From an uncultured beta proteobacterium (GTDB lineage Bacteria > Pseudomonadota > Gammaproteobacteria > Burkholderiales > Burkholderiaceae_C), in NCBI GenBank assembly GCA_963784775.1, contig CAWAST010000010.1, positions 81,875 to 145,874 of the forward strand: DNA of 64,000 nt, in the 5' to 3' direction. Below are positions 8,143 through 38,520 of this stretch, piece by piece (position 1 is the first letter of the stretch; the number at the start of each line of letters is the position of its first letter). Under the pieces are notes generated by a model. It was not told the origin of the DNA and did not search any database. It was given only the letters and a program-made list of their open reading frames with translations. A program made the position numbers and the translations under genes.

Positions 8143-9076
8143 TGAACAGTTGCGCCACATCGACCGCGTCAAAACGGTATTGGGCACCACAAAACTCACA
8201 CCCAACTTCAAGCTCACCGCGTTCGGCCAGAACTTCCTGCGCTTCATTGCGACCCAAGTCCAGCAGCATCCGACCGACCCCCTCGCGGCTGCAGGTGCAG
8301 GCAAAGTGGGGCTTGCCTGCGCCTGCCGTCGGCTCATAAAGGGTCAATTTTTCTTCCCAGAAGAGACGACGAAGAATTGTTTCTGCGTCCAGCGTCAGCA
8401 ACTCCTCGCGCTTGAGGCTTGAAGCCAGTATGGAGATGCGGTTGAAATCATCCTCGCGGTCCATCTCTGGCGAGTGCCCGCCGCCAGCCAGATTGCCCAC
8501 GCCTTCCAGGGGCACGCGCTGTAACAGCAAACCCGCGGCGAGCTTGTCATCGGCCGCCAGCACCAGCGTTGTCTCCAACTGCTCACTTTGGTCCATGTAA
8601 TGCTCAAGCACCTTGTTCAGGCGTTCGATCTTTTCGCCACGCACGTTGTTCAGCGGGACGACTCCCTGATAGGGTTGTTGCCCCGGAAAACCCGACTTGG
8701 GATCAAGCGTGATGGCGCATTTGCCCGCATCGCCGACATTGAGCATCGTGCTCAGACTGGCATCGGGTGCGACATCACCAACCACCTTGGCCATGGCCCG
8801 CAGTCCAAAGTCGCTCTGAACTTCGACCACGGCCAGCTTGACCGGCCCATCGCCAAAAATCTGCAGGATCAACGAGCCATTGAACTTGATGTTCGATTGC
8901 ATCAAGGTCGCTGCGGCAAACATTTCGCCCAGCAGACTCTGAACCGGTTGCGGATAGTGGCCGTCCCCTCCCGCGCCCGCACGCCGACGCAGCACCTCAG
9001 TCCAGGCATCGGTCAAGCGCACCAGCACACCGCGTACCGATGCACCCTCAAACAAAAACTTGTGAATCTCGGACAC
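8099..9076 (-). CDS. hslO: redox-regulated chaperone Hsp33
   Basis: 325 aa; C-terminal zinc centre CTCSRE...CEFCGAQY. Confidence 0.9.
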   Translation of the reverse strand: MSEIHKFLFEGASVRGVLVRLTDAWTEVLRRRAGAGGDGHYPQPVQSLLGEMFAAATLMQSNIKFNGSLILQIFGDGPVKLAVVEVQSDFGLRAMAKVVGDVAPDASLSTMLNVGDAGKCAITLDPKSGFPGQQPYQGVVPLNNVRGEKIERLNKVLEHYMDQSEQLETTLVLAADDKLAAGLLLQRVPLEGVGNLAGGGHSPEMDREDDFNRISILASSLKREELLTLDAETILRRLFWEEKLTLYEPTAGAGKPHFACTCSREGVGRMLLDLGRNEAQEVLAERGELEVGCEFCGAQYRFDAVDVAQLFTIAGDLPPSSSAVQ

Positions 9077-9740: not shown

Positions 9741-10982
9741 ATGTCAACTCAATCTGAAACCGGGGGCCCGTCCCACGCGAATGCCATAGCACGGCAGGCA
9801 ATCGTGGACAAGAATCGGGCCGTTTTTGGCTACGAGCTTTTTGATCGCTCGACGCCACTCGACACCCACACAGCCGCCAGCGACGCCGCATTGCTGTTCA
9901 ACGTGTTGTCACACGCGGACAACGAAGGGTTGATGGACACCAAGGTCATCTTCATCAACTGCACCCATCAAACGCTGGCTGGCGGCCATCTTGAACTGAT
10001 TCGCCCGGATCGTGCCGTTCTTGAAGTTCCCCCGCTGCCTGGCGCAACCGATGAGGAAATCGAAGCCTATGCCCCCATGCTGAGCGCCGTTCGGGCGCAG
10101 GGCTTTAGGCTCGCCTTTGACCATACGGCACTAGGCAAGTCCTATGCGAGCTGGCTGCCAATGGCGGCATTCATCAAGCTCGACCTCTCCCGGCTAACCC
10201 CTGAGATTGTGAAGACGGCCGCTCAATTTTCCCGGACGGACACCAGCACCAAGCTGATCGCGGAAAAGGTGGAGACCGCCGCGCAGCACGAGCTTGCGAT
10301 CAAACTGGGCGTCCACCTTTTCCAGGGCTATTGGTTTGCAAAACCGGTATTGCTCGCGGGCCAGACCGTGCGCCCGGCGCAGGCAGCGATCATCCAGTTG
10401 ATCAACCTGGTTCGCCAGCAGGCCAGCACGTTTGAAATTGAGGAAGTTCTGAAACGCGACCCGACGCTGTCCTTCAATCTCCTTCGTTTCATCAACTCGT
10501 CCGGCTTTGGCCTGAGCTGTCAGATCACATCGTTCCGGCATGCCGTGATGATCTTGGGCCTCAAAAAACTGTTCCGCTGGGCCGCGCTCCTGATGACCAC
10601 CTCGCGCGTGAGCGGTGTAGCTCCGGCAGTGGGCAGCATGGCCATCGTGCGAGGTCGACTGATGGAACTGCTGGCCGCCGAGATGCTGCCTGCCGAGGAA
10701 TGTGACAACGCCTTTGTCGTGGGCGTTTTCTCCCTGCTCGATACCATGCTGGGCATTCCGATGGAGAAGGCCCTGGCGTCGATTTCCCTTCCCGACACCG
10801 TGATCGACGCCCTGCTCCATGGCACGGGCGCGCTGGCCCCGTTTCTTGAATTGGTCAAGGCCTGCGAAAGCGCCGATGATGAATCCTTTGCCCGAACCGC
10901 CGATGCGTTGCAATTGACCAACCGGCAGGTCAACTGGGCCCATCTTCAAGCTTTGGCCTGGGCCGAAACACTCACCCATTAG
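9741..10982 (+). CDS. EAL-like and HDOD domain signalling protein
   Basis: 413 aa. N-terminal QAIVDKNRAVFGYELFDR (EAL-type fold start); C-terminal half has an HDOD-like pattern (LKRDPTLSFNLLRFINSSGFG...). Confidence 0.7.
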   Translation: MSTQSETGGPSHANAIARQAIVDKNRAVFGYELFDRSTPLDTHTAASDAALLFNVLSHADNEGLMDTKVIFINCTHQTLAGGHLELIRPDRAVLEVPPLPGATDEEIEAYAPMLSAVRAQGFRLAFDHTALGKSYASWLPMAAFIKLDLSRLTPEIVKTAAQFSRTDTSTKLIAEKVETAAQHELAIKLGVHLFQGYWFAKPVLLAGQTVRPAQAAIIQLINLVRQQASTFEIEEVLKRDPTLSFNLLRFINSSGFGLSCQITSFRHAVMILGLKKLFRWAALLMTTSRVSGVAPAVGSMAIVRGRLMELLAAEMLPAEECDNAFVVGVFSLLDTMLGIPMEKALASISLPDTVIDALLHGTGALAPFLELVKACESADDESFARTADALQLTNRQVNWAHLQALAWAETLTH

Positions 10983-11019
10983 CTTGTTGTGCCCGGTGCC
11001 ACGACGGCCAATGCACTCG

Positions 11020-11919
11020 TTAGCCGCGTGGATGATGTCGGGAATGCAAGGCGTTGAGCCGCTCCCGCGCCACATGGGTATAAATGGTCGTGGTTGAAAT
11101 ATCTGCGTGACCCAGCAGCATTTGCACCGCGCGCAGGTCTGCCCCATGATTGAGCAAATGGGTTGCAAACGCGTGACGCAGCGTATGAGGCGACAACGGC
11201 ACGGTGACGCCCGCGCCCTGTGCGTGTTTTTTCACAATCATCCAGAACATGACGCGGCTCATGGCGGTGCCGATTCGAGAACCTCTTTGAGTCACGAACA
11301 GGTCTTCGGTCTGCTTGCCCGCCAACAGGGCCGGACGCGCATCCGCCAGATAAATCTTTATCCAGAGGCTCGCAATCTCGCCAAAGGGAATCAGGCGTTC
11401 CTTGTTGCCCTTGCCGGTGACCCGCACCACATTGTCCTGGAGGCTGATGTTAAAGACTTTGAGGGTGACCAATTCGCTTACGCGCAGACCGCTGGCGTAC
11501 ATCAGCTCCAGCATGGTTCTGTCGCGCACGCCAAGCGGTGTAGCGATGTCCGGTGCTGCCAGGATTGCCTCAACCTGCGCCTCGGTCAATGTCTTTGGCA
11601 CCCGCAACGCCTGGCGCGCCGCCTGCAGCTTGAGTGTGGGGTCCACCGCAATATGATGCTCGCGCAGTGCCCATCGAAAAAAGCGCTTGAAAACCGTAAG
11701 CCGCCGATTGGCGGTGGTGGCTTTGCTGGTGGCGTGCTGCGCAGAAAAATACCCGTTGAGGTCGATCTCCGTGGTTGCCAGCAGGACTTGTCCGTGACCG
11801 ACTAGCCATTGCTCGAACTGTGTCAGGTCCCGCCGGTATGCCGCCAGCGTGTTGCCCGACAGGCCGTCTTCCAGCCACAGTGCGTCGATGAATGTGTCAA
11901 TGAAAGGCTCTGTTGTCAC
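11020..11919 (-). CDS. xerD: site-specific tyrosine recombinase XerD
   Basis: ORF 11020..12009. GTG at 11919 gives VTTEPFIDTFIDALWLEDGLSGNTLAAYRRDL, colinear with the E. coli XerD N-terminus, and removes the overlap with the divergent transporter gene. HTLRHAFATHLL, LLGHADISTTTIYTHV. Confidence 0.85.
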   Translation of the reverse strand: MTTEPFIDTFIDALWLEDGLSGNTLAAYRRDLTQFEQWLVGHGQVLLATTEIDLNGYFSAQHATSKATTANRRLTVFKRFFRWALREHHIAVDPTLKLQAARQALRVPKTLTEAQVEAILAAPDIATPLGVRDRTMLELMYASGLRVSELVTLKVFNISLQDNVVRVTGKGNKERLIPFGEIASLWIKIYLADARPALLAGKQTEDLFVTQRGSRIGTAMSRVMFWMIVKKHAQGAGVTVPLSPHTLRHAFATHLLNHGADLRAVQMLLGHADISTTTIYTHVARERLNALHSRHHPRG

Positions 11920-11994
11920 GCTAGCTTGTAGAAGGGTAAATCGGTCCGGTCGTCCGGCGTGCTGCGGGTCGAGCCGCACTGGTATTCTCGCAGG

Positions 11995-12906
11995 GTGAAT
12001 TACGCTCAACTGCTCATCCCGGATTTTTCCCTCATTTTGATGGGCTACCTGATCTGCCGCTTCACCGCGTTGAATCGAACGGTGTGGGCTCAGGTCGAGG
12101 CGCTGGTGTATTTCTTTCTATTCCCGGTTCTGCTCTTTCACTCGATCATACGAAGCCCATTGGAGTTGACTGCCGCTTCCAGCCTGATCGGCGCGGGCTG
12201 GGCAATGGGCTTGACCGGTATTGCCCTGGCCTACTCCATCCCGTACTGGCCCGGCCTTCGCTCCCATATTCCGGACCGCGCTCATGCCGCCAGCGCGCAA
12301 GTGGCCTTTCGGTTCAACTCGTTCATCGGCTTGGCCGTGGTGGGTCGCCTGGCCGGACCACAGGGACTTCAGATGATCGCGGTGCTGATCGGCGTATGCG
12401 TGCCCTTGTTCAACGTGGGCGCGGTCTGGCCCATGGCACGGCACGCCCAGCGCGGTTTGTGGCGCGAGCTGGCGCAGAACCCGCTGATCATCGGCACTGC
12501 GGCTGGCTTGAGCGCCAACCTGGCTGGTCTGACCCTGCCAGACTGGCTCGACCCCTCCTTGGCCCGCATCGGCTCTGCCTCATTGCCCTTGGGATTGATG
12601 GCCGCCGGTGCCGGCATGCAGTTGGGCGCGCTCAACAAGACCAAGTCCCTCACGGTGGCCCTCATGTCGATCCGGCATTTCCTGATCCCCCTGGCGGCCT
12701 TCGGGTTTGCGCGGCTCTTTGGCCTGAACCCCACACAAACCACGGTGCTGCTGATCTTCTCAGCGCTACCGACGGCATCGAGCTGTTATGTGCTGGCTTC
12801 GCGCATGGGCTACGACGGCGCCTACGTGGCCGCACTTGTCACCCTTTCTACCCTGCTGGGCATGCTCAGTCTGCCCTTTGCCCTGGGCCTTCTGGGCGGT
12901 CATTGA
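11995..12906 (+). CDS. AEC (auxin efflux carrier) family transporter
   Basis: ORF 11959..12906. In-frame GTG at 11995 (VNYAQLLIPDFSLILMGYL) preferred; start uncertain. Polytopic membrane protein. Confidence 0.7.
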   Translation: MNYAQLLIPDFSLILMGYLICRFTALNRTVWAQVEALVYFFLFPVLLFHSIIRSPLELTAASSLIGAGWAMGLTGIALAYSIPYWPGLRSHIPDRAHAASAQVAFRFNSFIGLAVVGRLAGPQGLQMIAVLIGVCVPLFNVGAVWPMARHAQRGLWRELAQNPLIIGTAAGLSANLAGLTLPDWLDPSLARIGSASLPLGLMAAGAGMQLGALNKTKSLTVALMSIRHFLIPLAAFGFARLFGLNPTQTTVLLIFSALPTASSCYVLASRMGYDGAYVAALVTLSTLLGMLSLPFALGLLGGH

Positions 12907-27015: not shown

Positions 27016-27050
27016 AAAAAGGCCGGTGTGAACCGGCCTTTTTTTGTTTT
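27016..27050 (+). terminator. rho-independent terminator of the dpp operon (A-tract/T-tract flanked, potentially bidirectional)
   Basis: AAAAAGGCCGGTgtgaACCGGCCTTTTTTTGTTTTT, 7-bp GC stem, 4-nt loop, T-run. Confidence 0.8.
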
Positions 27051-27158
27051 TGAAGGGGTTTGATAACGCGATTGGCTGTTGACTTCCAGCGCCGGTTTAG
27101 ACACAAAGCCGACAGCCAAATTTCCTGACAACGGTCATACAAATCACTGGATTTTGTG

Positions 27159-27287
27159 TTTTAACGTTCGAGCTAAGCGGGCGACGACGGCAGGCCGCCA
27201 GGCCCGGGATGGTGAAAATGTACCGCGTACCACCAGCCCGGGCCTGGTGGCCTGCTGTTGGCGCTCCGCTTGAGCGAGGGGTTAGGC
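27159..27287 (-). mobile_element. attC recombination site (129 bp) of the cassette
   Basis: Cassette strand: R''=GCCTAAC (27287-27281, contains the cassette TAA stop), spacer CCCTC, L''=GCTCAAG, long imperfect stem (CAGGCCACCAGGCCCGGG / CCCGGGCCTGGCGGCCTG), L'=CTTAGC (L'' carries one extra unpaired base), spacer TCGAAC, R'=GTTAAAA (27165-27159). Confidence 0.7.
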
Positions 27288-27755
27288 ATCGCCGTGCGCG
27301 GGCCGAACGCGATAGGTACGCATGGCCGACGCCACCTGCGACTCTTCGGTGGTCTCGGCGGCGTATAGCCGATAGCTTGGAGCAAGGATTGGCTCCACTG
27401 CCACGGCCTGGACGACCAGCACACTGTGAATCTGGAACCGAGGACCAGCCTTGGCTGCCAGTGGCGTGGACCAGATTGGGAACTCCGGGTCTTGCCTGCC
27501 CACGTTCCGTGCGATGCCGATCACCTTGAAGCCCTTCTGAACGAAAACATCGACGAAGCTGACACACACGCGAGGGTTGGCTCCGATGTTGCGTACGCTT
27601 TTCGGTGACGCGATGTTTGCGATGACAAGGTGATTCGAATCGAAGCCAGCGAAGATTTCCTTCGGCGAGACGTTCGGCTGGCCAACTTCGTCGACAGTTG
27701 CCAACCAGCAGAGGACGCTGCGAGTGGCGGATTCCTGGACTTCGGGTGAAAGCAT
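27282..27755 (-). CDS. integron cassette gene: pyridoxamine 5'-phosphate oxidase-like (split-barrel flavin-binding) family protein
   Basis: ORF 27282..27836 trimmed to ATG 27755, downstream of the GTTAGGC cassette boundary. MLSPEVQESATRSVLCWLATVDEVGQPNVSPKE...NPRVCVSFVD...GFKVIGIA matches the PNPOx-like pattern. No SD of its own. Confidence 0.7.
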   Translation of the reverse strand: MLSPEVQESATRSVLCWLATVDEVGQPNVSPKEIFAGFDSNHLVIANIASPKSVRNIGANPRVCVSFVDVFVQKGFKVIGIARNVGRQDPEFPIWSTPLAAKAGPRFQIHSVLVVQAVAVEPILAPSYRLYAAETTEESQVASAMRTYRVRPAHGDA

Positions 27756-27782
27756 GGGGACAGCGATAGTTGGTTTTGCGAT

Positions 27783-27845
27783 GCCTAACGTAATGTCCAG
27801 AGCATACCTTGCTCTATAAGTTGGACGTTGCTCCATAAGTTGGCC
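27783..27845 (-). mobile_element. attI site: two direct repeats plus GTTAGGC crossover core
   Basis: Cassette strand CCAACTTATGGAG (27843-27831) and CCAACTTATAGAG (27824-27812), then ...ACATTAC GTTAGGC (27789-27783). Confidence 0.6.
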
Positions 27846-27847
27846 AT
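27785..27847 (-). CDS. candidate 20-codon attI leader ORF (MANLWSNVQLIEQGMLWTLR)
   Basis: AGGAGG (27858-27853) 5 nt before ATG 27847. The TAG stop is the TAG of the GTTAGGC core (27787-27785). Confidence 0.35.
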   Translation of the reverse strand: MANLWSNVQLIEQGMLWTLR

Positions 27848-27867
27848 GAAATCCTCCTGAAAACGGC

Positions 27868-27896
27868 TTGCAGCCTTGTTATTTGCCATGTATGCT
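27868..27896 (+). promoter_or_regulatory. candidate Pint promoter
   Basis: TTGCAG -17 nt- TATGCT, 28 nt upstream of the intI ATG; the -10 overlaps the LexA box. Confidence 0.4.
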
Positions 27897-27910
27897 GTAC
27901 AAACATACAG
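27895..27910. promoter_or_regulatory. LexA (SOS) box
   Basis: CTGTACAAACATACAG fits CTGT-N8-ACAG (13/16 to CTGTATATATATACAG), 14 nt upstream of the intI ATG. Confidence 0.65.
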
Positions 27911-27937
27911 TTATAATTTTTCCATGAAACCCGGCAA
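27910..27937 (-). promoter_or_regulatory. candidate cassette promoter Pc (inside the first codons of intI)
   Basis: Minus strand TTGCCG -16 nt- TATAAC, immediately followed by the LexA box. Confidence 0.35.
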
Positions 27938-28933
27938 CCCTCCACTGCAATCCGTCCGTGTGCTGGATCAGTTGCGTGAGCGCATTCGGTACATGCACTA
28001 TAGCCTCAGCACCGAGCAAGTTTATGTGTATTGGGTGCGTTTTTTCATTCGCTGGTCGGCTCGCGACGGCGGCATGCGCCATCCGCGCGAAATGGGTGCT
28101 GCCGATGTGGAAGCATTTCTCACCATGTTGGCCACCCAGCGCAAGGTTTCTGCCTCCACCCACAACCAGGCTTTGAGTGCCATTTTGTTTTTGTACCGAG
28201 AGGTGCTGGGCGTGGCATTGCCCTGGCTTGACAACGTCAACCGGCCCACGCAAAAGCGGCGCATTCCCAGCGTGCTGACCAAAGACGAAGTGGCAGGCTT
28301 GCTTGCACATACAGATGGGCCAGCCGCGCTCGTCGCACGCCTGCTGTATGGCACTGGCATGCGGCTGATGGAGGGCATGCGCCTGCGCATCAAAGACGTG
28401 GACTTTGACCGCCAAGTCATCATCGTGCGCGATGCCAAACGCGGCAAAGACCGCGTTGTGATGCTGCCGCGTTCGCTGGAACCGGCCCTGCGCTTGCAGA
28501 TGCTTGCGGCGCGCGCGCAGTGGGAAGCTGATCGACAGGCGCAGCGGGGCGGCGTCGAGACACCGCATGCGCTGGAGAAAAAATACCCCAAGGTTGGCTA
28601 CACGTGGGGATGGTTCTGGATGTTTCCCTCGCCCACTCTGTCGATTGACCCGCGCAGTGGTGTAGAACGCAGACACCACTTGTACGAAGACCGGGTTCAG
28701 CGCGCACTCAAAAAGGCCGTGCCACTGGCGGGAATTTGTAAACCGGTCTCGGTTCACACGCTGCGTCATTCGTTCGCCACGCATCTGCTGCAAGCTGGCA
28801 CCGACATCCGAACGGTTCAAGAGTTGTGGGGCACAGCGACGTTTCAGCCACCATGATTTACACCCACGTTCTCAAGGTGGCTGCAGGTGGCACGGCCAGT
28901 CCGCTGGATGCACTCAGTAGCCCAACTTGGTGA
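27924..28933 (+). pseudogene. intI: integron integrase IntI, interrupted by a -1 frameshift near 28827
   Basis: [42 protein letters not shown]..., IntI-specific insertion [50 protein letters not shown]. Frame 0 stops at 28856 after ..[14 protein letters not shown]. Frame -1 continues (L)[21 protein letters not shown]..., including the catalytic Tyr, to TGA 28931-28933. Confidence 0.88.
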
Positions 28934-28981
28934 CGGGCCGCTTACGCAGCCCACCTGACACTCATCGTCGAAACTTTTCAC

Positions 28982-30259
28982 TCAAGTCGCCGCGGGCCGC
29001 AGCGTGATTCGTTGCCCCACTCCCAGCGCCGCGCCCACGCTCAGCAGCAGAACCGCGGCCGCACCGAACAGCGTGGCACCGTACCAGCCGCGATCCATGA
29101 ACGTGCCAAAAATAAGTGGAGAGAGGGCAAAGCCGACGTCCAATCCGGAATAAACGAGTCCATAAACCCGGCCTGTCGCGCCTTTCGGCGTCGCTTTTTT
29201 AATCATCATGTCGCGCGAAGGCCCGCCAATACCCACGGCAAAACCCGTGGCGGCCAGCACCGCCATTGTTCCGGTGCCACCCAAAAGACCCGTGGCGCAC
29301 AGGGCCAGCAGCGCGGCTCCCACGCTCATCGCAACGGCCACCACCCGGTCGCTGTCCGAGCGCCGCACAGCAACAAAGCCGCCCACAAACATGCCCAGCG
29401 CCCCGCACAGCATGTAGGCCGTCAACGTGAGGGTTGCCGCCTCGAAGCTGACGCCATGCATGGCCTTGAGGATGGAGGCCGAAAAACTCTGCACCACGGC
29501 CAGCGTCATGGTCGAGAGCATGAAAAATGCAAAACACCACCAAACCACCGGCAGCTTCATGAAGGCCATGCCGTGCTCGGCGTTCGCGTGCTCGTCGGTG
29601 GCAGCGGCTTGTGTGCGCAGCTTGTCGCGCTGCGCCAGCAGCAATGCAATAACGCCAACATACATGACTGCCGCAGCCAGATAGGCTGTGCGCCAGCTGT
29701 ACAGGCTGCTCACGGTGACCAAAAAGACGGGCGCCAGGGCCCACCCGAGATTGCCCGTGAGGCCATGCGCACTGAAGGCATGGCCCAGCCGGGCCCCGGA
29801 GACGCGCTGGTTGAGGATGGTGAAGTCAACCGGGTGAAAGGTGGCATTGCCCAAGCCCGCCAAACCCGCGGCCAGCAGCAAGCCGCCATAGCCGGTGGCC
29901 ATCGAGGCTGCCACGCAGGCCAGCACAAACAGGCCCAGCGCCGAAAAAAGCATGGGACGGGCTCCAAGCCGGTCCACGGCAAACCCGGCACTGGCCTGTC
30001 CCAACCCGGAGACCACAAAAAAGGTGGTCATCAAGAGGCCGAGCTGCGAGTAGCTCAACCCGAACTCCGTCATGAACACCGGAAACAACGGGGGCAACAA
30101 CAGGTGGGCAAAGTGTGAACTGGCATGCGCCAAGCCGACCAGGGCGATGATGGCAGCGTCTTGCCGCAAAGGGGTCGGTTGGGCGAGGGGAAGTGTGGTG
30201 CTGGACATGGCGTCTATGGTATGCGAAGGTGGTGCAGCTTGTTGCCAGAGCGACATCAT
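28982..30259 (-). CDS. MFS transporter
   Basis: 425 aa, 12 hydrophobic segments, GFAVDRLGARP motif. Confidence 0.85.
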   Translation of the reverse strand: MMSLWQQAAPPSHTIDAMSSTTLPLAQPTPLRQDAAIIALVGLAHASSHFAHLLLPPLFPVFMTEFGLSYSQLGLLMTTFFVVSGLGQASAGFAVDRLGARPMLFSALGLFVLACVAASMATGYGGLLLAAGLAGLGNATFHPVDFTILNQRVSGARLGHAFSAHGLTGNLGWALAPVFLVTVSSLYSWRTAYLAAAVMYVGVIALLLAQRDKLRTQAAATDEHANAEHGMAFMKLPVVWWCFAFFMLSTMTLAVVQSFSASILKAMHGVSFEAATLTLTAYMLCGALGMFVGGFVAVRRSDSDRVVAVAMSVGAALLALCATGLLGGTGTMAVLAATGFAVGIGGPSRDMMIKKATPKGATGRVYGLVYSGLDVGFALSPLIFGTFMDRGWYGATLFGAAAVLLLSVGAALGVGQRITLRPAAT

Positions 30260-30396: not shown

Positions 30397-31794
30397 TCAC
30401 AAACAGCTCAAACCCTTCATCACCTGAGCAAACTGCCACGCCAACTCAAGATCGGGTTGGCCGTCGGACACGGCCTGCCCCGCCACAAACACCTGCTTGA
30501 AACCGGCATCGGGGCTGGAAAACACCAGTGCGTCGAGCACGTGGTCATCGGGCACGCCCACAAGTGCATTCGACTGCGAATCGAGCACCAGAAAATCGGC
30601 CCGGTTGCCGATGGCAATGCCGCCCAGAGGCTGCCCGCTGGCCGCTCTTCCCCCTGCCAGTGCGCCCTCAAACAGCGCCGCGGCGGTGCTCGCCGCACCA
30701 CCGGGCACCGCAGCAACATTGCGGCGGCGTACGGTTAGACGCTGCGAATACTCCAGCAGCCGCAGTTCCTGCGTCCAGCAGCGGGTGACGTGGCTGTCCG
30801 ACCCGATGGACCAGTTGCCGCCCACCGCGCTCAAGCCGGGGTAGTCAAACACGCCGTCACCCAGGTTGGCCTCGGTGCTGGGGCAAATGACCACCGAGGC
30901 GCCACTGCCGGCCACGGCCCGCAACTCCGCTGGCGTGGTGTGGGTGGCGTGCACCAGATTCCAATGCCTGTTGACGGCCAGATGGTCCATCAGCCACTCC
31001 ACCGGGCGCTGGCCGGTGTGGGCCAGGCAATCGTCCACCTCCTGGGTCTGCTCGGAGATGTGAATGTGCACCGGCAGCGCCGCTGCCGCAGCAAAGGCGG
31101 CCAGCTCCTTGACGGCCGCTGGCTCAACCGCCCGCAGGGAATGCAGGGCCACCCCGACGTTGACCGCGCCCGCAGACTGCGTTTGCCGTTGCACGCTCTC
31201 CACCAGATGGGCAATGCCGTCGGGTGTGCAGGCAAACCGGCGTTGATCCTCGCGCAGACCGCCTGCATCAAAGCCGCTGCGCCGGTACAGCGCGGGCAGC
31301 AGGGTGAGCCCCATGCCCACGCGCTGCGCCGCACGCACCAGCGCCAGTGACATCTCCAGCGGGTCTGCATACGGCCTGCCGTCCACCGCGTTGTGAAGGT
31401 AATGAAACTCGCACACCTGCGTGTAGCCGTTGGCCAGCAATTCGGCATACAAGAATGCCGCAATAGCCTCCAGCTGATCGGGCGTGATTCGGTTGGCCAG
31501 CCGGTACATGGCATCGCGCCAGCTCCAGAAATCGTCGCTGGCCGCCACGCCCACGGGACCGATGCGCTCGGTAAGACCGGCCATGGCCCGCTGAAACGCA
31601 TGACTGTGAGCGTTGACCAGCCCGGGCAGCACCGGGCTATCCAGCACGGTGGCGCCCTTGCGGTCGGCCTGCGGCACATCGGTTTGCACGCCTGACCACA
31701 GCCCAGCGACATCGACCGACAGCAGTACGTTGCTCGCCCAGGTGCCCTGCACCCAAGCCTGCGCGGCAAAGAAAGTCTTGTTGCTATTTTTCAT
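30397..31794 (-). CDS. hutF: formimidoylglutamate deiminase
   Basis: ORF 30397..32088 trimmed to ATG 31794 ([14 protein letters not shown]). PGLVNAHSHAFQRAMAG, amidohydrolase fold. Confidence 0.85.
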   Translation of the reverse strand: MKNSNKTFFAAQAWVQGTWASNVLLSVDVAGLWSGVQTDVPQADRKGATVLDSPVLPGLVNAHSHAFQRAMAGLTERIGPVGVAASDDFWSWRDAMYRLANRITPDQLEAIAAFLYAELLANGYTQVCEFHYLHNAVDGRPYADPLEMSLALVRAAQRVGMGLTLLPALYRRSGFDAGGLREDQRRFACTPDGIAHLVESVQRQTQSAGAVNVGVALHSLRAVEPAAVKELAAFAAAAALPVHIHISEQTQEVDDCLAHTGQRPVEWLMDHLAVNRHWNLVHATHTTPAELRAVAGSGASVVICPSTEANLGDGVFDYPGLSAVGGNWSIGSDSHVTRCWTQELRLLEYSQRLTVRRRNVAAVPGGAASTAAALFEGALAGGRAASGQPLGGIAIGNRADFLVLDSQSNALVGVPDDHVLDALVFSSPDAGFKQVFVAGQAVSDGQPDLELAWQFAQVMKGLSCL

Positions 31795-32584
31795 AGAGGG
31801 CGCAGCAGGCTGCAATGGCGCTTTTAAGCATGGTCTTGAGCAGTGGCCGGATTGCCGCCGCCCTTTGTGGGTCAAATTCGAACGGCGTGGCTTCCTGCAT
31901 GTACAGGTTCTGGCACATCTCCAGTTGCACCGCATGCACGTGGTCGGCCGGGGAGCCATAGCGGCGGGTGATGTAGCCACCCTTGAATCGCCCATTGAGC
32001 ACGTGGCTGACGTGGCCATCCTGTACGCAAGCCTGCACCACGGCGGCGGCGATGGACGCGTGGGCGCTGGCGCCGTCGGCGGTGCCAATGCTCAAGGCCG
32101 GCAGGGTGCCCTCAAACAACCAGGGAATGCGCGAGCGAATGCTGTGGGCGTCCCACAAGAGCGCGTAGCCATGAATCGATTTGATTCGCTGCAACTCGGC
32201 GGCCAGGGCCGTGTGATAGGGCATCCAAAACGCTTCGCCGCGGCGTGCACACTCGGGCGCGGTGGGATCCTGGCCTGGCAAATACAGCGCCTCGCCGGTG
32301 AAAAAACGCGTCGGGCACAGCTCGGTATTCGATGCGCCGGGGTACATGGGGGCGTTGTCCAGCGGGCGATTGAGGTCGATCACATAGCGCGAAGTGCGCG
32401 GCATCAGGACGCTGGCACCGAGCTCCGGCAAAAAGTCGTAGAGCTGGTCCAGATGCCAGTCGGTATCTTCCACCGCCAGCGCACGCGGCACGTAGGCGCG
32501 GCGCAACTCAACCGGAATGTCGATGCCGATGTGCGGCATGCTGACCAAAAGCGCTGAGCTGCCGCGCCCCAGGGTGTAGGTCAT
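31784..32584 (-). CDS. hutG: N-formylglutamate deformylase
   Basis: 266 aa; [19 protein letters not shown]. Confidence 0.85.
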
Positions 32585-33795
32585 CGTGGCTTTCCTTCAA
32601 AAATCACCTGCTTGCAGGGGTTGGCCCCGAAAGCGTAGCTCAGCTGGGCCGGGCTGTGCACATCCCACAGCACAAAGTCGGCACGCTTGCCCGCCGCCAA
32701 GATGCCCCGGTCCGGCAAGCCCAAGGCTTGCGCCGCGCGACGCGTCACGCCGGCCAGCGCCTCATGCGGGGTGAGCCGGAACAGCGTGCAGGCCATGTTG
32801 AGCATCAGCAGAATCGAGCTGCAGGGCGAACTGCCCGGATTGCAATCGGTGGCAATCGCCATGGGCACGCCAAGGCAGCGCAGCAATTCAATCGGCGGCA
32901 CTTTGGTTTCGCGCAGAAAATAAAACGCCCCCGGCAACAGCACGGCCACCGTGCCGGCCCGCGCCATCGCCTGCGCACCCTGGGGTGACAACCACTCCAG
33001 GTGATCGCAGCTCAGGGCTTGAAACCTCGCTGCCAACTCTGCGCCGCCACTGTCGCTAAGTTGCTCGGCGTGCAGCTTCACGGGCAAGCCCAGTTCGCGG
33101 GCCAGCGTGAACACCCGCGCCACCTGCTCTGGCGTGAACGCGATGCGCTCGCAAAATGCATCGACGGCATCGACCAGGCCTTCTGCATTCAGCCCAACCA
33201 GCATGCGCAGTACTTCGTCCAGATACTCGTCGGGACGCCCGGCAAACTCTGCGGGCAGCGCGTGCGCGCCCAGAAAAGTGGTGCGAATGGCCACCCGATG
33301 CTGCTGCCCGAGCTCACGCGCCACCTGTAGGCACTTGCGCTCGTGCGTCAGCGCCAGCCCGTAGCCCGATTTGATCTCCAGTGTGGTGACGCCCTCCTCC
33401 AGCAGGCGCTGCAATCGCACCGCGCTTTGGCTCCGGAGCTCCTGGGCACTGGCCCCGCGTGTCGCCTGCACGGTGGCTGCGATGCCGCCGCCCTGTCGGG
33501 CAATGTCTTCATAGCTGGCGCCGTTGAGGCGTTGCTCGAATTCACTGGCCCGGTCTCCGCCATAGACCAGATGCGTGTGGCAATCGATCAGCCCGGGCGT
33601 GATCAGCGCGCCGCCGCAGTCATGGCGCCCCTCGCATTGGGCGAGCAGTTCAGGAGGCACGTCACGGCGCGCGCCGACCCATTGAATGGTGGACCCGTGC
33701 ACCACCAGCGCACCGTCTTCGATCAGACCATAGGGTGTGGCACTGTCGGCACGCATGGTCGCCAACGAGCAATGGCTCCACAGTTCAAGTGTCAT
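32581..33795 (-). CDS. hutI: imidazolonepropionase
   Basis: 404 aa; [24 protein letters not shown]. Confidence 0.92.
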
Positions 33796-34355
33796 GCATC
33801 AATCTCCATCCACAAGGCATCAAGGCTTTCAATCTGCGTCGACGTCCCTGCAGGCACGGCCTGCCACGCCAGGCTGTGCGGCTTAAGCTCCAAAACATCG
33901 TGATCAAATTGCACTCTAGCCCTCGTTGATATTGCATAGATAGCTACTGTTTTAGGAGCAGTCAGAACTTGCTCCAGGCTGCCTCTCACTCGCAGCATCT
34001 TCGTCGATGCTTCGGCGCGGCGCACCATCAGGTTGAAGTCCTGCGTGGCGCCATCGATCAGCTGGCACTGCACAGGGCTCGCTCCGTCAAACTCGAAGGG
34101 CTCGCTCTCACAGGTCAAGCGGCGCACCCCGCCTGCCACGTCCAGCGTGACGCCCTCACCGCCGAGCACGGCAAACCAGCGCTGCATCCCCTCAAAGGTA
34201 GAGAACGGCCCGTTTTGACTGATCTGCGCCACCGACATGCGCCAAGTCCACTCGGGCGTCCCCTTTGGCCAAACGACAAGTTCGCGGGTCACGCCACCAC
34301 CGTTGCGCCAGAGGCTGGCGGCAACTTCGCTCAATTGAACCAGATTCCAGCTCAT
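33792..34355 (-). CDS. hutD: HutD family protein
   Basis: ORF 33792..34487 trimmed to ATG 34355 ([30 protein letters not shown]). ATGA overlaps with hutC upstream and hutI downstream. Confidence 0.75.
33914..33959 (-). repeat. dispersed ~48-nt repeat, copy 3 (inside the hutD reading frame)
   Basis: rc = GCTCCTAAAACAGTAGCTATCTATGCAATATCAACGAGGGCTAGAG, read in frame as [15 protein letters not shown]; local AT-rich patch. Confidence 0.6.
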
Positions 34356-35071
34356 AACTGAAACTGCCCACTGAAGCTGTAGCGGGCACCCGGGTAGACC
34401 AGCCGCACCCGGCTGGCCACAACAGCCCCGCTGACCGTGCGCCGCGTCATCATCAGGCAGGGCTCGCTGCGCTTGATGCCCAGCCATTTGGCCTGCTGCG
34501 GCTCAGGCACAACAGCCTCGATGGTGTAGTTCGCCTCCGTCAAGGGCGCGTGCTCCAGCAGGTAGCGTGTGGGCGTGATCGCAGAGAAATCAGCCTGCAG
34601 AAAATTGGGTGCCGCAAGCGGATTGACATAGCGATCCTCCAGCTGGATGGGCTGCCCATCCTCGCAATGCACCAGCACGGTGTGAAACACCTCGGCACCC
34701 GTTGCCAAGCCAAGGATCTGCGCCAGAACGACCTCTGCGCTCACGGATTCGAGCTTGAGAACCTGGCTGCTGTGCGCATGGCCACGCTCCAGAATTTCTT
34801 CATGAATGTCACGCACCACCAGCTGGCTGGAGATGCGATGCAGCTGCGCCACCACCGTCCCCGAGCCCTGCACGCGCGTCACCAGCCCTTCGACGGCCAG
34901 CTCCTTGACCGCGCGGTTGACCGTCATGCGGCTGACGCCAAACTGTTGCTGCAATTCGGCTTCACTGGGCACGGCGTCACCGGGCCGCCAAGCCCCGGCG
35001 TTGATCCGGGCCTTCACGAAGGCCTTGACCTGTTCGTAGGCCGGTAGTTGATGAGTCTTCACTTGGGGCAT
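34352..35071 (-). CDS. hutC: histidine utilisation repressor (GntR/HutC family)
   Basis: ORF 34352..35116; ATG 35071 (MPQVKTHQLPAYEQVK...) preferred. SEAELQQQFGVSRMTVNRAVKEL wHTH, UTRA C-terminal domain. Confidence 0.85.
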   Translation of the reverse strand: MPQVKTHQLPAYEQVKAFVKARINAGAWRPGDAVPSEAELQQQFGVSRMTVNRAVKELAVEGLVTRVQGSGTVVAQLHRISSQLVVRDIHEEILERGHAHSSQVLKLESVSAEVVLAQILGLATGAEVFHTVLVHCEDGQPIQLEDRYVNPLAAPNFLQADFSAITPTRYLLEHAPLTEANYTIEAVVPEPQQAKWLGIKRSEPCLMMTRRTVSGAVVASRVRLVYPGARYSFSGQFQL

Positions 35072-35108
35072 GACGCGTGTGTTTTTCGGGCTCAGGGTTT
35101 TCCCCGTA

Positions 35109-35131
35109 TTGTACAAGTTGTATAGACAACT
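35109..35131. promoter_or_regulatory. candidate HutC operator(s) in the hutC / hutU divergent region
   Basis: TTGTACAA (perfect 8-bp palindrome) overlapping AGTTGTATAGACAACT (6-bp arms AGTTGT/ACAACT); GntR/HutC-type sites are GT..AC palindromes. Confidence 0.4.
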
Positions 35132-35182
35132 ATACTATCCGCACAAACCCTTAATTGCACACACTGACACCAGAGCCCGATC

Positions 35183-36890
35183 ATGTCCAACCTTTCACGC
35201 TCACGTTTTCCCGACAGCCAAGCCCGCCCGGTCCGCGCGCCGCGTGGCACCGCCCTCACCTGCGCCAACTGGCAAATCGAAGCAGCCTACCGCATGCTGC
35301 AAAACAACCTCGACCCCGAAGTGGCCGAGAACCCGGATGAGCTGGTGGTGTACGGCGGCATTGGCAAGGCGGCGCGCAACTGGGCCTGCTTTGATGGCAT
35401 TCTCGATTCCCTGCGCAAGCTCCAGCCCAACGAGACGCTGCTGGTGCAAAGCGGCAAGCCGGTGGGCGTGTTTCGTACCCATGCCGATGCGCCACGGGTG
35501 CTGATCGCCAATTCAAACCTGGTGCCCAAATGGGCCAACTGGGAGCATTTCAACGAACTCGACCGCAAGGGCCTGATGATGTACGGCCAGATGACGGCGG
35601 GCAGCTGGATTTACATTGGCTCGCAAGGCATCGTGCAAGGCACTTACGAAACTTTCGTGGAAGCCGGTCGCCAGCACTTCAACGGCGATCTGACCGGGCG
35701 CTGGGTGTTGACCGCAGGCCTGGGGGGCATGGGCGGCGCGCAGCCACTGGCCGCCACCTTTGCTGGCGCCTGCTCACTGAACATCGAGTGCCAGCAAAGT
35801 TCGATCGACTTTCGTCTGCGCACCCGCTATGTGGATGAACAAGCCACCGATCTGGACGACGCCCTGGCCCGCATCGCCAAGTACACGGCAGAGAAGAAAG
35901 CTGTGTCCATAGCCTTGTGCGGCAACGCCGCGGACATCGTGCCCGAACTCGTCAAGCGCGCCAAGGCCGGTGACATCCGCCCCGACATCGTGACCGACCA
36001 GACCTCGGCCCACGACATCATCAACGGCTATTTGCCTTCGGGCTGGAGCGTGGAACGGTGGAAAGCCGCGCAAAAAGACCCGAGCCAACATGCTGCGCTG
36101 ACGCAGGCCGCCGGACAATCCTGCGCCGTGCATGTGCAAGCCATGCTGGAGTTTCACGCCATGGGCATTCCGACGGTGGACTATGGCAACAACTTGCGCC
36201 AGGTGGCCAAGGACTTTGGCGTGACCAACGCCTTTGACTACCCCGGCTTCGTGCCGACCTACGTGCGCCCGCTCTTTTGCCGGGGCGTGGGCCCCTTCCG
36301 CTGGGTGGCCTTGAGCGGCGATCCGCGAAGATATCAAAAAGACCGACGCCAAGATGAAAGAGCTGTTCCCGCACAACGCGGGCCTGCATCGCTGGCTGGA
36401 CATGGCGCAGGAGCGCATCGCCTTCCAGGGCCTGCCCGCGCGCATTTGCTGGATCGGTCTGGGCGAGCGGCATCTGGCCGGTCTGGCGTTCAACGAGATG
36501 GTCAAAAGCGGCGAGCTCAAGGCCCCCATCGTCATTGGCCGCGACCACTTGGACAGTGGTTCGGTGGCCTCGCCCAACCGCGAGACCGAAGCCATGAAAG
36601 ACGGCAGCGACGCTGTGAGCGACTGGCCACTGCTCAACGCGCTGCTCAACACCGCCAGTGGCGCCACCTGGGTCAGCCTGCACCACGGCGGCGGGGTGGG
36701 CATGGGGTATTCCCAGCACTCCGGTGTCGTGATTGTTTGTGACGGCACGCCCGAAGCCGCAGAGCGCCTTGAACGCGTGTTGTGGAACGACCCGGCCACC
36801 GGTGTCATGCGCCACGCCGACGCGGGCTACGAAATTGCCGAAAACTGTGCCCGTGAGCACGCCCTGAACCTGCCCATGAAAGCCCACTAA
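35183..36890 (+). pseudogene. hutU: urocanate hydratase, split by a +1 frameshift near 36324-36326
   Basis: Frame A (35183..) is urocanase up to ...[10 protein letters not shown], then turns into an Arg/Gln/Pro-rich nonsense tail. Frame B (ORF 36354..36890), extended back to 36327, reads [42 protein letters not shown]...HHGGGVGMG...RHADAGY, which is the normal C-terminus. Confidence 0.85.
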
Positions 36891-36891
36891 C

Positions 36892-38520
36892 ATGTCCAAC
36901 CCTCTCACCCTTGCGCCCGGCCACTTCACCCTGGAGCAATTGCAATCCATTCACACTGAAGTGGTGCAACTGACGCTACCCCAGGCCAGCTGCGACGTCA
37001 TTCGAGCCAGCCAGCAAGTGGTGCAACGCGCCGCCGATGGCGACGCTCCGATCTATGGCGTCAACACCGGCTTTGGCAAGCTCGCCAACCAGCGCATCAG
37101 CAAGGCCCAACTGGAGACCCTTCAACTCAACCTGATTCGCTCACACAGCGTGGGCGTGGGCGCACCGCTGGCGCCCGAAGTGGTGCGGCTAATGCTCGCG
37201 CTTAAGGCGGCCAGCCTGGCGCGTGGATACTCCGGCGTGCGCGAAGTGGTGATCGACACCCTGCTGGCGGTGCACAACGCGGGCCTGGTGCCCTACATTC
37301 CGTCGCAAGGCTCGGTGGGTGCCTCGGGCGATCTGGCGCCGCTGGCGCACATGACGCTGGCACTGATTGGCGAAGGCGACATGCTGCAGGACGGCCAGCG
37401 CATCCCGGCCGCAAAGGCCCTGCAACAGGCAGGCATTGCACCCTTGACACTCGGTGCCAAGGAAGGCCTGGCGCTGATCAACGGCACCCAGACCTCAACT
37501 GCCCTGGCGCTGCATGCGCTGTTCAGCTTTGAACCCGTGTTGGAAGCTGCGCTGGTGATCGGCGCACTGACGGTGGACGCGGCGCGCGGCAGCGATGGTC
37601 CGTTTGACCCGCGCATTCACGCCCTGCGCGGCCAACCAGGCCAGATCGACGTGGCCGAGTACTACCGGGCACTGCTCAAAGGCAGCGCCATTCGCCACTC
37701 GCACCTGGACGGCGATGACCGTGTGCAAGACCCCTACAGCCTGCGCTGCCAACCCCAGGTGGTGGGCGCCTGCCTGGATCAACTGCGCCACTGCGCTCAA
37801 GTGCTGCTGCGCGAGGCCAATGCGGTGACCGACAACCCGCTGGTGTTCGCGCAAGACGGGGCAATGGATCTGGCGCTGGGCCGCCCCAAGCCAGATCAAG
37901 TCCCCCCGGGGGGCAGCGACCCTGGGGAGCGTGGGGGCTGCATGATCTCTGGCGGAAACTTTCACGCCGAACCGGTCGCGCTGGCCGCCGATGGCATGGC
38001 ATTGGCAATTGCCGAAGTGGGCGCGATTGCCGAGCGCCGCATCGCCATGCTGATCGACAGCAGTGTCTCGCGCCTGCCCGCCTTCCTGACAGCCGATGCC
38101 GGGCTGAACAGCGGCTTCATGATCGCCCACGTGACCGCTGCTGCGCTGGCCTCGGAAAACAAGTCGCTGGCCCACCCCGCCAGCGTGGACAGCCTGCCCA
38201 CCAGTGCAAACCAGGAAGATCACGTGTCCATGGCCACGTTCGCGGCGCGGCGCCTGCAGGCCATGATCAGCAATACTGCCAATATTCTGGGCATCGAGTT
38301 GCTGGCCGCGGCGCAGGGCATTGAGTTTTTGCGGCCCCTGGCCAGCTCGCAGGCTCTGGAGCAGGCCCACGCGCTCCTGCGTGAGACGGTGCCCGCGATG
38401 GCGCAGGACCGCTTTTTAGCCCCGGACATCGAGCACGCCACGACGCTGGTGCGCCACGGTGCGCTGTCACGCATCTTCCGCACGCTGAGCGGTTTGCCGC
38501 CGCTGTGGATTGCGGCCTGA
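36892..38520 (+). CDS. hutH: histidine ammonia-lyase (with a 26-aa internal insertion)
   Basis: 542 aa; [14 protein letters not shown] (MIO-forming ASG), [10 protein letters not shown] ... [13 protein letters not shown] 78-nt extra segment sits at 37867-37944. Confidence 0.9.

Follow-up and report, generated by a model that had tools for sequence, protein, structure and literature searches.

A one-cassette chromosomal integron with a frameshifted integrase gene between dppA and an MFS transporter gene of a probable Rhodoferax-like betaproteobacterium

Results

Organization of the integron

The interval bounded by the dppA terminator and an MFS transporter gene contains an intI-family gene, a divergent attI site with two direct repeats and a G/TTAGGC crossover, one 624-bp cassette and a 129-nt attC site. 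Taken together with the mechanism proposed below, these features are very probably best explained by a small, one-cassette chromosomal integron of the Comamonadaceae/Rhodoferax-like type. The window, that is, the whole 64-kb stretch of DNA that was analysed, appears to come from a Rhodoferax-like member of the soil and freshwater betaproteobacteria, judging from homologues only. The element is a new example and not a new kind; public databases already contain close relatives by the thousand. The features are as follows, in coordinates of the window.

27016-27045, no strand assigned: intrinsic terminator of dppA, left boundary; 12-bp stem with an A-run on one side and a T-run on the other (terminator scan)
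27046-27158, no strand assigned: 113-bp spacer between terminator and attC, with a 14-nt imperfect inverted repeat (27072-27085 and 27106-27119)
27159-27287, minus strand: attC, 129 nt, from covariance model R1, folding and R/L boxes
27165-27788, minus strand: gene cassette, 624 bp, beginning at TTAGGC just past the attI crossover and ending at the G of R'
27282-27755, minus strand: cassette gene for a 157-aa PNPOx-like FMN-binding split-barrel protein (Pfam PF01243, PNPOx_N, E 6.4e-15)
27783-27789, minus strand: GTTAGGC core of the attI crossover; the exchange point falls between G 27789 and T 27788
27785-27858, minus strand: attI translation initiation region and 20-codon ORF MANLWSNVQLIEQGMLWTLR, with SD AGGAGG at 27853-27858 and ATG at 27847
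27806-27843, minus strand: two tandem 19-nt attI direct repeats, DR1 CCAACTTATGGAGCAACGT and DR2 CCAACTTATAGAGCAAGGT, kept in relatives
27868-27896, plus strand: candidate intI promoter TTGCAG-17-TATGCT, hexamers kept across 16 loci
27895-27910, plus strand: candidate LexA box CTGTACAAACATACAG, overlapping the -10 of the candidate intI promoter
27924-28933, plus strand: integron-integrase gene intI, ATG at 27924, stop at 28933, one nucleotide deleted between 28826 and 28827
28982-30259, minus strand: MFS transporter gene, right boundary, convergent with intI and 48 bp from the intI stop

The initial annotation had proposed the order intI, attI, cassette and attC. This order agreed with family HMMs, with a covariance model for attC that had been trained independently, and with the position of the crossover as mapped by comparison of related loci. 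A string search recovered every feature that it had listed, exactly or within a few bases. Its view that the window otherwise consists of core genes holds for those sampled (pyrG, eno, hslO, xerD, queG, amiC, the dpp and hut operons, dnaKJ and etf). A complete integron in the IntegronFinder sense, reportedly that of Cury in 2016, has at least one attC within about 4 kb of intI; our own covariance model places one there. Base composition gave no signal of foreign DNA at the integron block, the window holds no tRNA genes, and a scan of the whole window at the Rfam gathering thresholds gave no match. To our knowledge, Rfam has no attC family.

The slot itself is a variable intergenic interval. 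The two arms of the dppA terminator are complementary at 12 of 12 positions, and because an A-run and a T-run lie on either side of the stem, the terminator can stop both the dppA and the cassette transcripts. The 113-bp spacer showed no similarity to any fetched locus and no attC signal by the covariance model. Remnants of a second cassette, or junctions shared with other loci, were sought in 27046-27158 and 28925-28990 without a match.

The attC site

The 129-bp imperfect palindrome running from GCCTAAC to GTTAAAA, which had been claimed from the sequence, was found at 27159-27287 with canonical boxes and both extrahelical bases. R'' (GCCTAAC, 27281-27287) is followed by a 5-nt spacer, L'' (GCT[C]AAGC, 27268-27275) and a long variable stem, and on the other arm L' (GCTTAGC, 27172-27178) is separated by a 6-nt spacer from R' (GTTAAAA, 27159-27165). 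L'' carries an extra C, followed after 6 bp by an extra A; in the MFE fold of the bottom (+) strand these positions appear as a bulged G and a bulged T, 6 bp apart. R' has an A in place of Y at position 7. The R' end of attC is derived from the old attI or from downstream DNA.

A covariance model, R1, was trained on 22 attC sites of related loci from which this attC and its 129-nt kin had been excluded. R1 matched 27159-27287 on the minus strand over its full length (57.4 bits, E 3.3e-14), the sole match in 64 kb, and so bore out the attC that the initial annotation had expected such a model to find. Applied to 81 related loci, R1 gave 129 matches; 128 lay upstream of intI and on the opposite strand. 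A heuristic attC finder, whose strictness excludes many real sites and which matches both strands of near-perfect palindromes, was used solely as a seed for the covariance model. With both strands of the 64 kb scanned, each of the two returned exactly one site, and it was the same site, so that the attC signal is far beyond chance. On folding, the bottom strand had a z score of -8.5 and the top strand one of -5.7, none of 200 shuffled sequences folded as well, and in the alignment of the 129-nt attC family 22 of the 36 base pairs showed compensatory changes.

The integrase

Repaired at the deletion, IntI scored 449.6 bits against NF011946 (cut-off 435) and 439.6 bits against TIGR02249 (cut-off 265), full length in both cases. 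The insertion specific to integron integrases that had been noted in this plus-strand tyrosine recombinase is indeed present as a 38-residue stretch and aligns with VchIntIA and IntI1; the 12-residue stretch noted with it is present too. The equivalents of VchIntIA W219, P232, H240 and H241, which we take to be the residues that bind the extrahelical bases, are also present. Thousands of database proteins share 84-96% identity with IntI.

These results bear on the suggestion that the gene encodes a recombinase of the XerC/D or phage type that happens to lie beside a REP-like or terminator palindrome, with no integron present. Matches to Xer models were indeed obtained, as secondary hits of a kind usual for any tyrosine recombinase, but at 144-164 bits they fell far under the cut-offs of those models, and both integron models were exceeded. 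The true XerD of the window, which served as a control, behaved in the opposite way: its score on the integron model was only 115 bits, below the cut-offs. Moreover, the palindrome fits the attC model over its full length, with R/L boxes and bulged bases. By the HMM scores, the covariance-model match and the XerD control, we consider this suggestion refuted and give it practically no probability.

The initial annotation was also right that the integrase gene is broken. DNA alignment with five relatives showed that one nucleotide has been lost between 28826 and 28827; the deleted base is a C that lies outside any homopolymer run. The reading frame closes at 28856 and does not extend to the box-II His or the catalytic Tyr (the Tyr of MIYTHVL), which leaves the catalytic RKHRHY set incomplete if the assembly is taken as correct. 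The truncated product was found in one assembly only. The gene has been under strong purifying selection (omega 0.086), and among 114 sequences its private substitutions at conserved sites do not make it an outlier. Two of these substitutions fall at positions invariant in 113 homologues: G173R, in a KG turn that IntI1 and VchIntIA share, and T309A, which lies within the DVSTTMIY motif. The inactivation of intI looks recent.

We also considered that the integron is fully functional and that the deletion is an error of sequencing or assembly. The deletion is the only lesion in a gene that is otherwise under strong purifying selection and has not gathered private substitutions in excess; the regulatory and recombination sites of the integron are all intact, and the truncation is confined to a single assembly. 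However, the lost base is not within a homopolymer, and G173R and T309A affect invariant positions. Broken integrase genes are also common: about one third of intI genes are frameshifted (Nemergut 2008, PMC2426708) and 43-46% are inactivated (Cambray 2011, PMC3108266), a reported range of 30% to 46%. An error is accordingly improbable.

The attI site and its short ORF

Conservation across 16 related attI regions ends exactly at the crossover, immediately after ACATTACG and before TT, in agreement with the GTTAGGC core first read from the sequence at 27783-27789 (minus strand). The direct repeats were also present as claimed, but their length had been given as 13 bp and they are tandem 19-nt copies (27825-27843 and 27806-27824) that are 89% identical. 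By analogy with attI1, they are presumed to be accessory IntI-binding sites.

The TAG stop codon of the attI ORF occupies positions 3-5 of GTTAGGC and is therefore supplied by the cassette. An attI ORF with SD and ATG was found in 27 of 75 related loci, and in 23 of the 27 it is exactly 20 codons long and ends in the core. ORF-11 of attI1 is likewise short, has an SD of its own and stops in positions 3-5 of the cassette GTTRRRY core (PMC8876359). The ORF described here matches that of class 1 in design and could account for translation of a cassette gene that lacks an SD.

Promoters and the LexA box

A palindrome, CTG(G/T)-N8-(C/A)CAG, is kept across 16 loci at the candidate LexA box; its half-sites change in step in 12 of the 16 and mismatch in 4. 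With such a box over the intI promoter, the element would by its motif be an SOS-regulated integron, a category reportedly due to Guerin in 2009 and Cambray in 2011. The candidate box matches the LexA motif of beta- and gammaproteobacteria, CTGT-N8-ACAG (PMC3108266). This LexA box over the intI promoter and the conserved 20-codon attI ORF with its strong SD are newly described here.

A consensus scan of the minus strand for a Pc promoter found none. By eye, the family has a consensus of TTATAA-16-TATATT, represented in the window by TTATAA-16-CATACA with a poor -10. Pc may lie inside intI, as it does in class 1.

The cassette

The first 12 nt of the cassette, counting the G (GTTAGGCATCGC, 27778-27789), are complementary at 12 of 12 positions to GCGATGCCTAAC at R'' (27281-27292). 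Complementary ends of this kind are the signature of a cassette that can circularise. The single ORF had been described as PNPOx-like and without its own SD, and both points held: the product matches Pfam PNPOx_N, and no purine-rich SD precedes the ATG. This start codon was fixed because most homologues are 157 aa long. The stop codon, TAA, lies within the R'' box. The gene is not a resistance gene.

By tblastn, homologues of the cassette protein were found only at loci L162-L167 and at none of the related integron loci; no attC lies beside the homologues in L162-L167. The copy most closely related to the cassette, that of L162-L165, does not lie in an integron; it has kept 23 nt of attI-like sequence and lost its attC.

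In the working that we propose, a LexA-repressed promoter would drive expression of intI under SOS stress, and IntI would join attI to the folded bottom strand of attC, reading the bulged G and T. The cassette, having neither promoter nor SD of its own, would depend on a promoter of the platform for its transcription, and the PNPOx gene would be translated by coupling to the 20-codon attI ORF through the strong SD and the cassette-supplied TAG. With the native IntI truncated, the cassette would thus be frozen unless an integrase acted in trans.

History of the locus

The initial annotation had suggested comparing the dppA-MFS interval with related genomes, where the block might be absent or carry more cassettes, and both situations were found. 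In one other genome, L001, the same slot is occupied, with the same gene neighbours in the same orientation, by an integron with an intact IntI, two attC sites and an IS21 element. Among 80 metagenomic loci with an orthologue of the MFS gene, none has an integron, and one (L086) is a clean empty site in which the dppA hairpin is directly followed by the MFS stop codon.

What can be said of the history comes from one genome pair, the window and L001, in which dS is 0.32 for intI and 0.86-1.42 for eight flanking genes; the platform is thus 3-4 times less diverged at synonymous sites than its surroundings. This low dS points to more recent shared ancestry or to transfer, and against long residence. 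The attI sites of the pair are 91% identical, and no junction sequences are shared. Relatives with about 90% identical IntI are located at other loci, and no conserved intI neighbour that would mark a mobile backbone was found among 67 loci. The platform appears to be younger than the chromosome around it.

The element had been called sedentary, a term said, after Cury in 2016, to apply to integrons present in all genomes of a species or carrying more than 19 attC sites. There is one attC here, and the dppA-MFS site is occupied by an integron in one related species (L001) and is empty or different in the 80 metagenomic loci. It had also been suggested to be decaying in place. The only damage is the single frameshift in intI; the LexA box, promoter hexamers, attI repeats and attC are intact, the gene has evolved under strong purifying selection and it is no outlier in private substitutions, so that decay is weakly supported overall. 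Arrays in related integrons usually have 1-6 attC sites; a single cassette is at the low end of the family range and is not aberrant.

Both labels would apply to an anciently resident integron inherited vertically with the dpp-MFS region and losing its cassettes and integrase where it stands. Such an origin accords with the shared neighbours and orientation in L001, the lack of transposition genes adjoining the platform in the window, the frameshift and the one cassette left. It is unlikely, however, given the divergence of intI and attI relative to the flanks, the unshared junctions, an empty site in a relative at similar distance (L086), the 0 of 80 occupied loci, the close IntI relatives elsewhere in genomes, and the absence of damage piling up beyond one indel. 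A composite account is also less likely than not: lateral replacement or independent insertion of the platform, a general ORF-11-like coupler, and conversion of a cassette into a chromosomal gene. The platform would have moved at a hot spot between Rhodoferax lineages without a recognisable transposon or IS vehicle, and the L162-L165 copy may be a snapshot of a cassette gene becoming an ordinary chromosomal gene.

Discussion

Environmental Comamonadaceae are rich in chromosomal integrons. Those of Rhodoferax, Polaromonas and Hydrogenophaga, among other Comamonadaceae/Burkholderiales, whose IntI proteins bear the annotation 'integron integrase' at NCBI and JGI, share with the integron described here the same attI, LexA box, 20-codon ORF and attC types, and the 129-nt attC type also occurs in Polaromonas and Hydrogenophaga MAGs. 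Their arrays are small, mostly with 1-6 attC sites. The copy in the window differs in its frameshifted intI, its single cassette and a dppA-MFS site shared with one sampled genome.

The class 1 platform is alike in its divergent intI and attI, a LexA box just upstream of the intI start, attI direct repeats, and a short ORF in attI that is preceded by an SD and has its stop in positions 3-5 of the GTTRRRY core (PMC8876359). The shared layout, with its LexA box and ORF-11-like element, might indicate a mobile integron of class 1-5 that had inserted into the chromosome on a transposon or plasmid. We regard this as extremely unlikely, since the identity of repaired IntI to IntI1 is no more than 61.4%, over 97% of the length, its best plasmid match reaches 72.7%, tni, IS and resistance genes are absent from the block and the cassette does not encode resistance. 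The attI ORF has 20 codons and not 11, and there is no Tn402 backbone, 3'-CS or resistance cassette. With that identity to IntI1, no tni genes and no 3'-CS, the element is not a class 1 integron.

VchIntIA of Vibrio cholerae, whose structure on the folded bottom strand of a VCR is available (PDB 2A3V), is homologous to repaired IntI over the full length (E 2e-81), and its attC substrate likewise has two extrahelical bases on the '' arm. The V. cholerae integron differs from the single-cassette chromosomal integron described here in its hundreds of cassettes and its attC type, and the integrase here is truncated. A premature stop in the integrase is also found in class 2 and some other integrons, in which the array is static unless IntI is provided in trans (PMC8876359, PMC2426708). 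Inactivation of the integrase usually correlates with loss of the LexA box (PMC3108266), whereas the candidate box in the window is intact; the lesion also differs from those of class 2 and other inactivated integrases in being a frameshift near the 3' end of intI.

As an integron, the element adds little, since such integrons and pseudogenes of intI are already well known. Judged by sequence comparison, however, the locus offers a natural series at one site: empty (L086), with one cassette and a broken intI (the window), and with two cassettes, IS21 and an intact intI (L001). Such a series may help in studying how small integrons are gained, turned over and lost. The apparent youth of the platform relative to its flanks may also bear on the movement of integrons called sedentary. 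The device known as ORF-11 from clinical class 1 integrons appears to have been kept, at a fixed 20 codons, in one environmental attI subfamily. If the composite history given above were true, stop codons supplied by cassettes would be a general feature of integron design beyond class 1.

Structure of the integron and its integrase

The arrangement of intI, attI, cassette and attC proposed in the initial annotation was correct and now rests on tests. The features discussed here are listed below.

Features of the integron and its surroundings (window numbering)
11020-12117, minus strand: XerD, the second tyrosine recombinase of the window
27016-27045: dppA terminator, a hairpin with an A-run and a T-run; left boundary
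27159-27287, minus strand: attC, an imperfect palindrome of 129 nt from GCCTAAC to GTTAAAA (covariance model and fold)
27165-27788, minus strand: gene cassette, 624 bp
27282-27755, minus strand: cassette ORF, 157 aa, PNPOx_N (PF01243, E 6e-15)
27783-27789, minus strand: crossover core GTTAGGC
27806-27824 and 27825-27843, minus strand: attI direct repeats, two tandem copies of 19 nt each
27847 (ATG), cassette strand: short attI ORF of 20 codons with a strong SD (AGGAGG, 27853-27858)
27924 (ATG) to 28933 (stop), plus strand: intI, tyrosine recombinase with one base missing
28982-30259, convergent with intI: MFS gene; right boundary
30397-38520: histidine-utilisation (hut) cluster of two amidohydrolase genes and FGase (N-formylglutamate amidohydrolase), these three assigned from Pfam matches in syntenic locus L001, followed by genes for a GntR/UTRA regulator, urocanase and histidine ammonia-lyase

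The intI reading frame breaks after TVQEL and continues in another frame up to W* at 28933. DNA alignment with five relatives showed that a single base is absent between 28826 and 28827 (GAGTTG-TGGGG compared to GAGTTGCTGGG). The repaired protein (336 aa) matched NCBIfam NF011946 (449.6 bits, cut-off 435) and TIGR02249 (439.6 bits, cut-off 265) over the full length, but scored only 144-164 bits on the XerC, XerD and XerA models, far under their cut-offs. The XerD of the window, which served as the internal negative control for the integron-integrase models, behaved in the opposite way, with 352 bits on TIGR02225 (cut-off 329.6) and only 115 bits on the integron-integrase model. Over its whole length, IntI-specific insertion included, repaired IntI aligned with the V. 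cholerae integrase of known crystal structure (PDB 2a3v, E 2e-81), and the stretch from which an integron integrase had been recognized is present. Since identity to IntI1 was 61.4%, this is not a class 1 enzyme. Proteins 84-96% identical to it number in the thousands in public databases, many of them labelled integron integrase, from Rhodoferax, Polaromonas, Hydrogenophaga and unclassified Burkholderiales.

Both the LLGHSD His and the MIYTHVL Tyr are missing from the truncated product (310 aa), which therefore should be inactive and for which an identical entry already exists in NCBI/ENA. Sequencing error is an unlikely source of the missing base, and a less typical one because the position lies outside any homopolymer. 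Inactivation of the integrase is probably recent; inactivated intI genes are common, with estimates of about one third (PMC2426708) and 43-46% (PMC3108266). When 114 homologues were aligned, the window IntI differed at three positions that are at least 95% conserved, a count that is not an outlier (rank 21st; median 2, maximum 8). Two of the three, G173R and T309A, alter residues invariant in 113/113 other homologues, and G173 sits in a KG turn also kept in IntI1 and VchIntIA. These two changes are a hint of relaxed constraint on intI that proves nothing.

The attC site

The 129-nt palindrome was much more stable in folding than shuffled sequences (plus strand, z = -8.5; minus strand, z = -5.7; 0/200 shuffles equal), and an Rfam search gave no match to it. 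A structural attC finder (R'' RYYYAAC, R' GTTRRR, single hairpin, short unpaired spacers) returned exactly one site on either strand of the 64 kb, 27159-27287. We also built an attC covariance model from 22 aligned sites with R and L box pairs, taken by the finder from integron loci fetched with IntI; the window site and its three near-identical 129-nt relatives were left out of the training. The model made one match in the window, at the same position on the minus strand (full model, 57.4 bits, E 3.3e-14), bearing out the identification of the palindrome as attC. Its specificity is shown by 81 related loci, where 128 of its 129 matches were upstream of intI and on the strand opposite to it. 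The sole match downstream of intI on the same strand (L059:2006-2065, plus, a Paenacidovorax caeni contig) may belong to a neighbouring array or to an integron arranged in another way.

The anatomy of the site is canonical. On the minus strand, R'' (GCCTAAC) and a 5-nt spacer are followed by L'' (GCT[C]AAGC, with one extra base), six base pairs, an extra A and a long variable stem; L' (GCTTAGC) and a 6-nt spacer then lead to R' (GTTAAAA), which closes attC. In the minimum-free-energy structure of the folded bottom (plus) strand, a bulged G and a bulged T lie six pairs apart, as they do in attC-aadA7 and in the VCR of the 2A3V structure. The 129-nt type was also found in L001 and in MAGs labelled Polaromonas, Hydrogenophaga, Ramlibacter, Rhodoferax and Betaproteobacteria. 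In an alignment of 11 such sites, 22 of the 36 consensus pairs showed compensatory double changes.

The cassette

Two independent signs delimit the cassette. The first 12 nt at the attI junction, GTTAGGCATCGC (27778-27789), are complementary at 12/12 positions to GCGATGCCTAAC at R'' (27281-27292), as expected if the cassette was once a circle closed at its own attC. When the intI-proximal regions of the window and 15 relatives are aligned, the conserved stretch extends from the start of intI to ACATTACGTT and ends exactly at the crossover, past which the 16 sequences are unrelated save for the RYYY pattern. The GTTAGGC core and a PNPOx-like ORF without an SD were both found as described, with no purine-rich SD present before the ATG. 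The start codon is fixed by homologues that are mostly 157 aa, and the TAA stop falls within R''. Most loci with 10 kb upstream of intI contained 1-6 attC sites by the covariance model, and L063 at least 15; a single cassette is thus at the lower edge of what is usual in this family.

JGI metagenome contigs (L162:4943-5472, also L163-L165) contain the closest relative of the PNPOx gene (95% aa, 92% nt), flanked by a KefB-type antiporter gene and a MarR gene, and neither intI nor attC was found near it in these contigs. At the nucleotide level the homology reaches 23 nt across the cassette boundary into attI-like sequence (AGCAAGGTGTGATGTCGATATTGAA|TTAGGCATCGCA), and its other end is exactly at the start of the window's R''. 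This looks like a cassette that lost its attC and became fixed outside an integron, although the opposite course is possible, and the copy may be a domesticated or fossil cassette. More distant members of the family are ordinary chromosomal genes.

The attI region

The two direct repeats reported initially are present, although at 19 nt rather than 13 bp. A palindrome, AGAGCA-N5-TGCTCT (27801-27818; columns 50-66 of A2, the alignment of attI regions), spans repeat DR2 and the simple site. Both arms change together in some relatives (e.g. CCGCA...TGCGG in locus L008), and they may be paired IntI-binding sites.

Two features go beyond the initial annotation: a candidate intI promoter with a putative LexA box, and the short attI ORF. 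The promoter candidate, TTGCAG-17-TATGCT, is conserved and is overlapped by CTGTACAAACATACAG (27895-27910), which matches CTGT-N8-ACAG, the LexA box of beta- and gammaproteobacteria (PMC3108266). The half-sites match in 12 of 16 aligned loci (4 CTGT...ACAG, 8 CTGG...CCAG) and mismatch in the other 4. In class 1 integrons CTGTTTTTTTGTACAG lies just upstream of intI1, and the putative LexA box of the window occupies the mirroring position.

The stop codon of the attI ORF is supplied by the cassette, since its TAG is positions 3-5 of GTTAGGC. An ORF with SD and ATG was present in 27 of the 75 related loci with enough upstream sequence, and in 23 of these 27 it is exactly 20 codons long and ends in the core; the peptide sequence is variable while SD, start and length are kept. 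The same logic holds for ORF-11 of attI1 in class 1 integrons: through translational coupling, it boosts translation of cassettes that have no initiation region of their own (review, PMC8876359). The PNPOx ATG lies 29 nt past the attI ORF stop, and coupling to this ORF would be a concrete way in which the SD-less gene could be translated. A promoter scan and alignment found no cassette promoter; in the best candidate the putative LexA box serves as the spacer, and the -10 of this genome is poor. An ATG in repeat DR1 (27836) is in frame with PNPOx across the crossover and opens a 184-aa ORF (27282-27836, minus strand), consisting of PNPOx with a 27-residue attI-encoded N-terminal extension. This start is probably not used, because no SD lies at the proper distance. 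Cases in which attI is fused to the first cassette are known from class 1 integrons.

Genomic setting and descent

The block lies between the dpp terminator and the MFS gene, as first described. Flanked by an A-run and a T-run, the terminator is bidirectional and would also end any transcript reading through the cassette and attC. The hut cluster begins just past the MFS gene. The sampled remainder of the window consists of housekeeping genes (pyrG, eno, hslO, queG, amiC, dnaK, dnaJ, etfA, acyl-CoA dehydrogenase), in keeping with its description as a core-gene region.

Among the fetched genomes, L001 alone (3.16-Mb contig, ENA sample ERZ25039499) has the integron in this slot, and in matching orientation. 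The order there is dppBCDF-A, IS21 (istAB), two attC, a Cass2/GyrI-like cassette, an intact IntI (95-96% identical to the window IntI, depending on the alignment), three extra genes and MFS. The IS21-family istA/istB genes (L001:5811-8188) are at the distal end of the array, and past them is a short second cassette with an 87-nt attC (8417-8503). The other 79 IntI loci have different neighbours, no gene recurred beside intI in more than 6 of 67 loci, and intI was found at 0 of 80 metagenomic loci with an MFS orthologue (70-82% identity). At L086:2459-2596 the MFS stop codon comes immediately after the dppA terminator, making this a clean empty site, and unrelated genes occupy the interval in L085, L111, L121, L132 and L135. 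The dppA-MFS interval is therefore a variable spot and the ~1.9-kb block is accessory, as had been suspected. A TPP-enzyme/SBF/epimerase trio adjoins the MFS gene in L001 (11011-15127) and L110; the window is without it.

We compared the window intI (27924-28933) and its flanks with L001 (intI, 10001-11011). The intI genes gave a dN/dS of 0.086 and a dS of only 0.32, and the non-coding attI region was 91% identical, whereas dS for eight flanking genes (among them dppA/B/C/F, MFS and two hut genes) was 0.86-1.42. Codon bias does not explain the low dS of intI, because its GC3 (0.69) is below that of the flanks (0.76-0.79). The window's junction sequences had no match in other fetched loci and are unique to it. 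The platform (intI and attI) thus seems to share a more recent common ancestor with that of L001 than does the surrounding chromosome, which accords with published work that attributes the distribution of integrons to repeated transfer and loss (PMC2426708). The far lower divergence suggests lateral replacement or recent acquisition of the platform. The integrase is probably broken, as first described, by a 1-base deletion. In the light of these comparisons the proposal that the platform is decaying in place is weak.

Overall, this is a small chromosomal integron of a sort typical for environmental Comamonadaceae. Three points alone might repay more work: the conserved attI ORF of 20 codons as a putative coupler, the apparently lower age of the platform relative to its flanks, and the cassette copy that has no attC.
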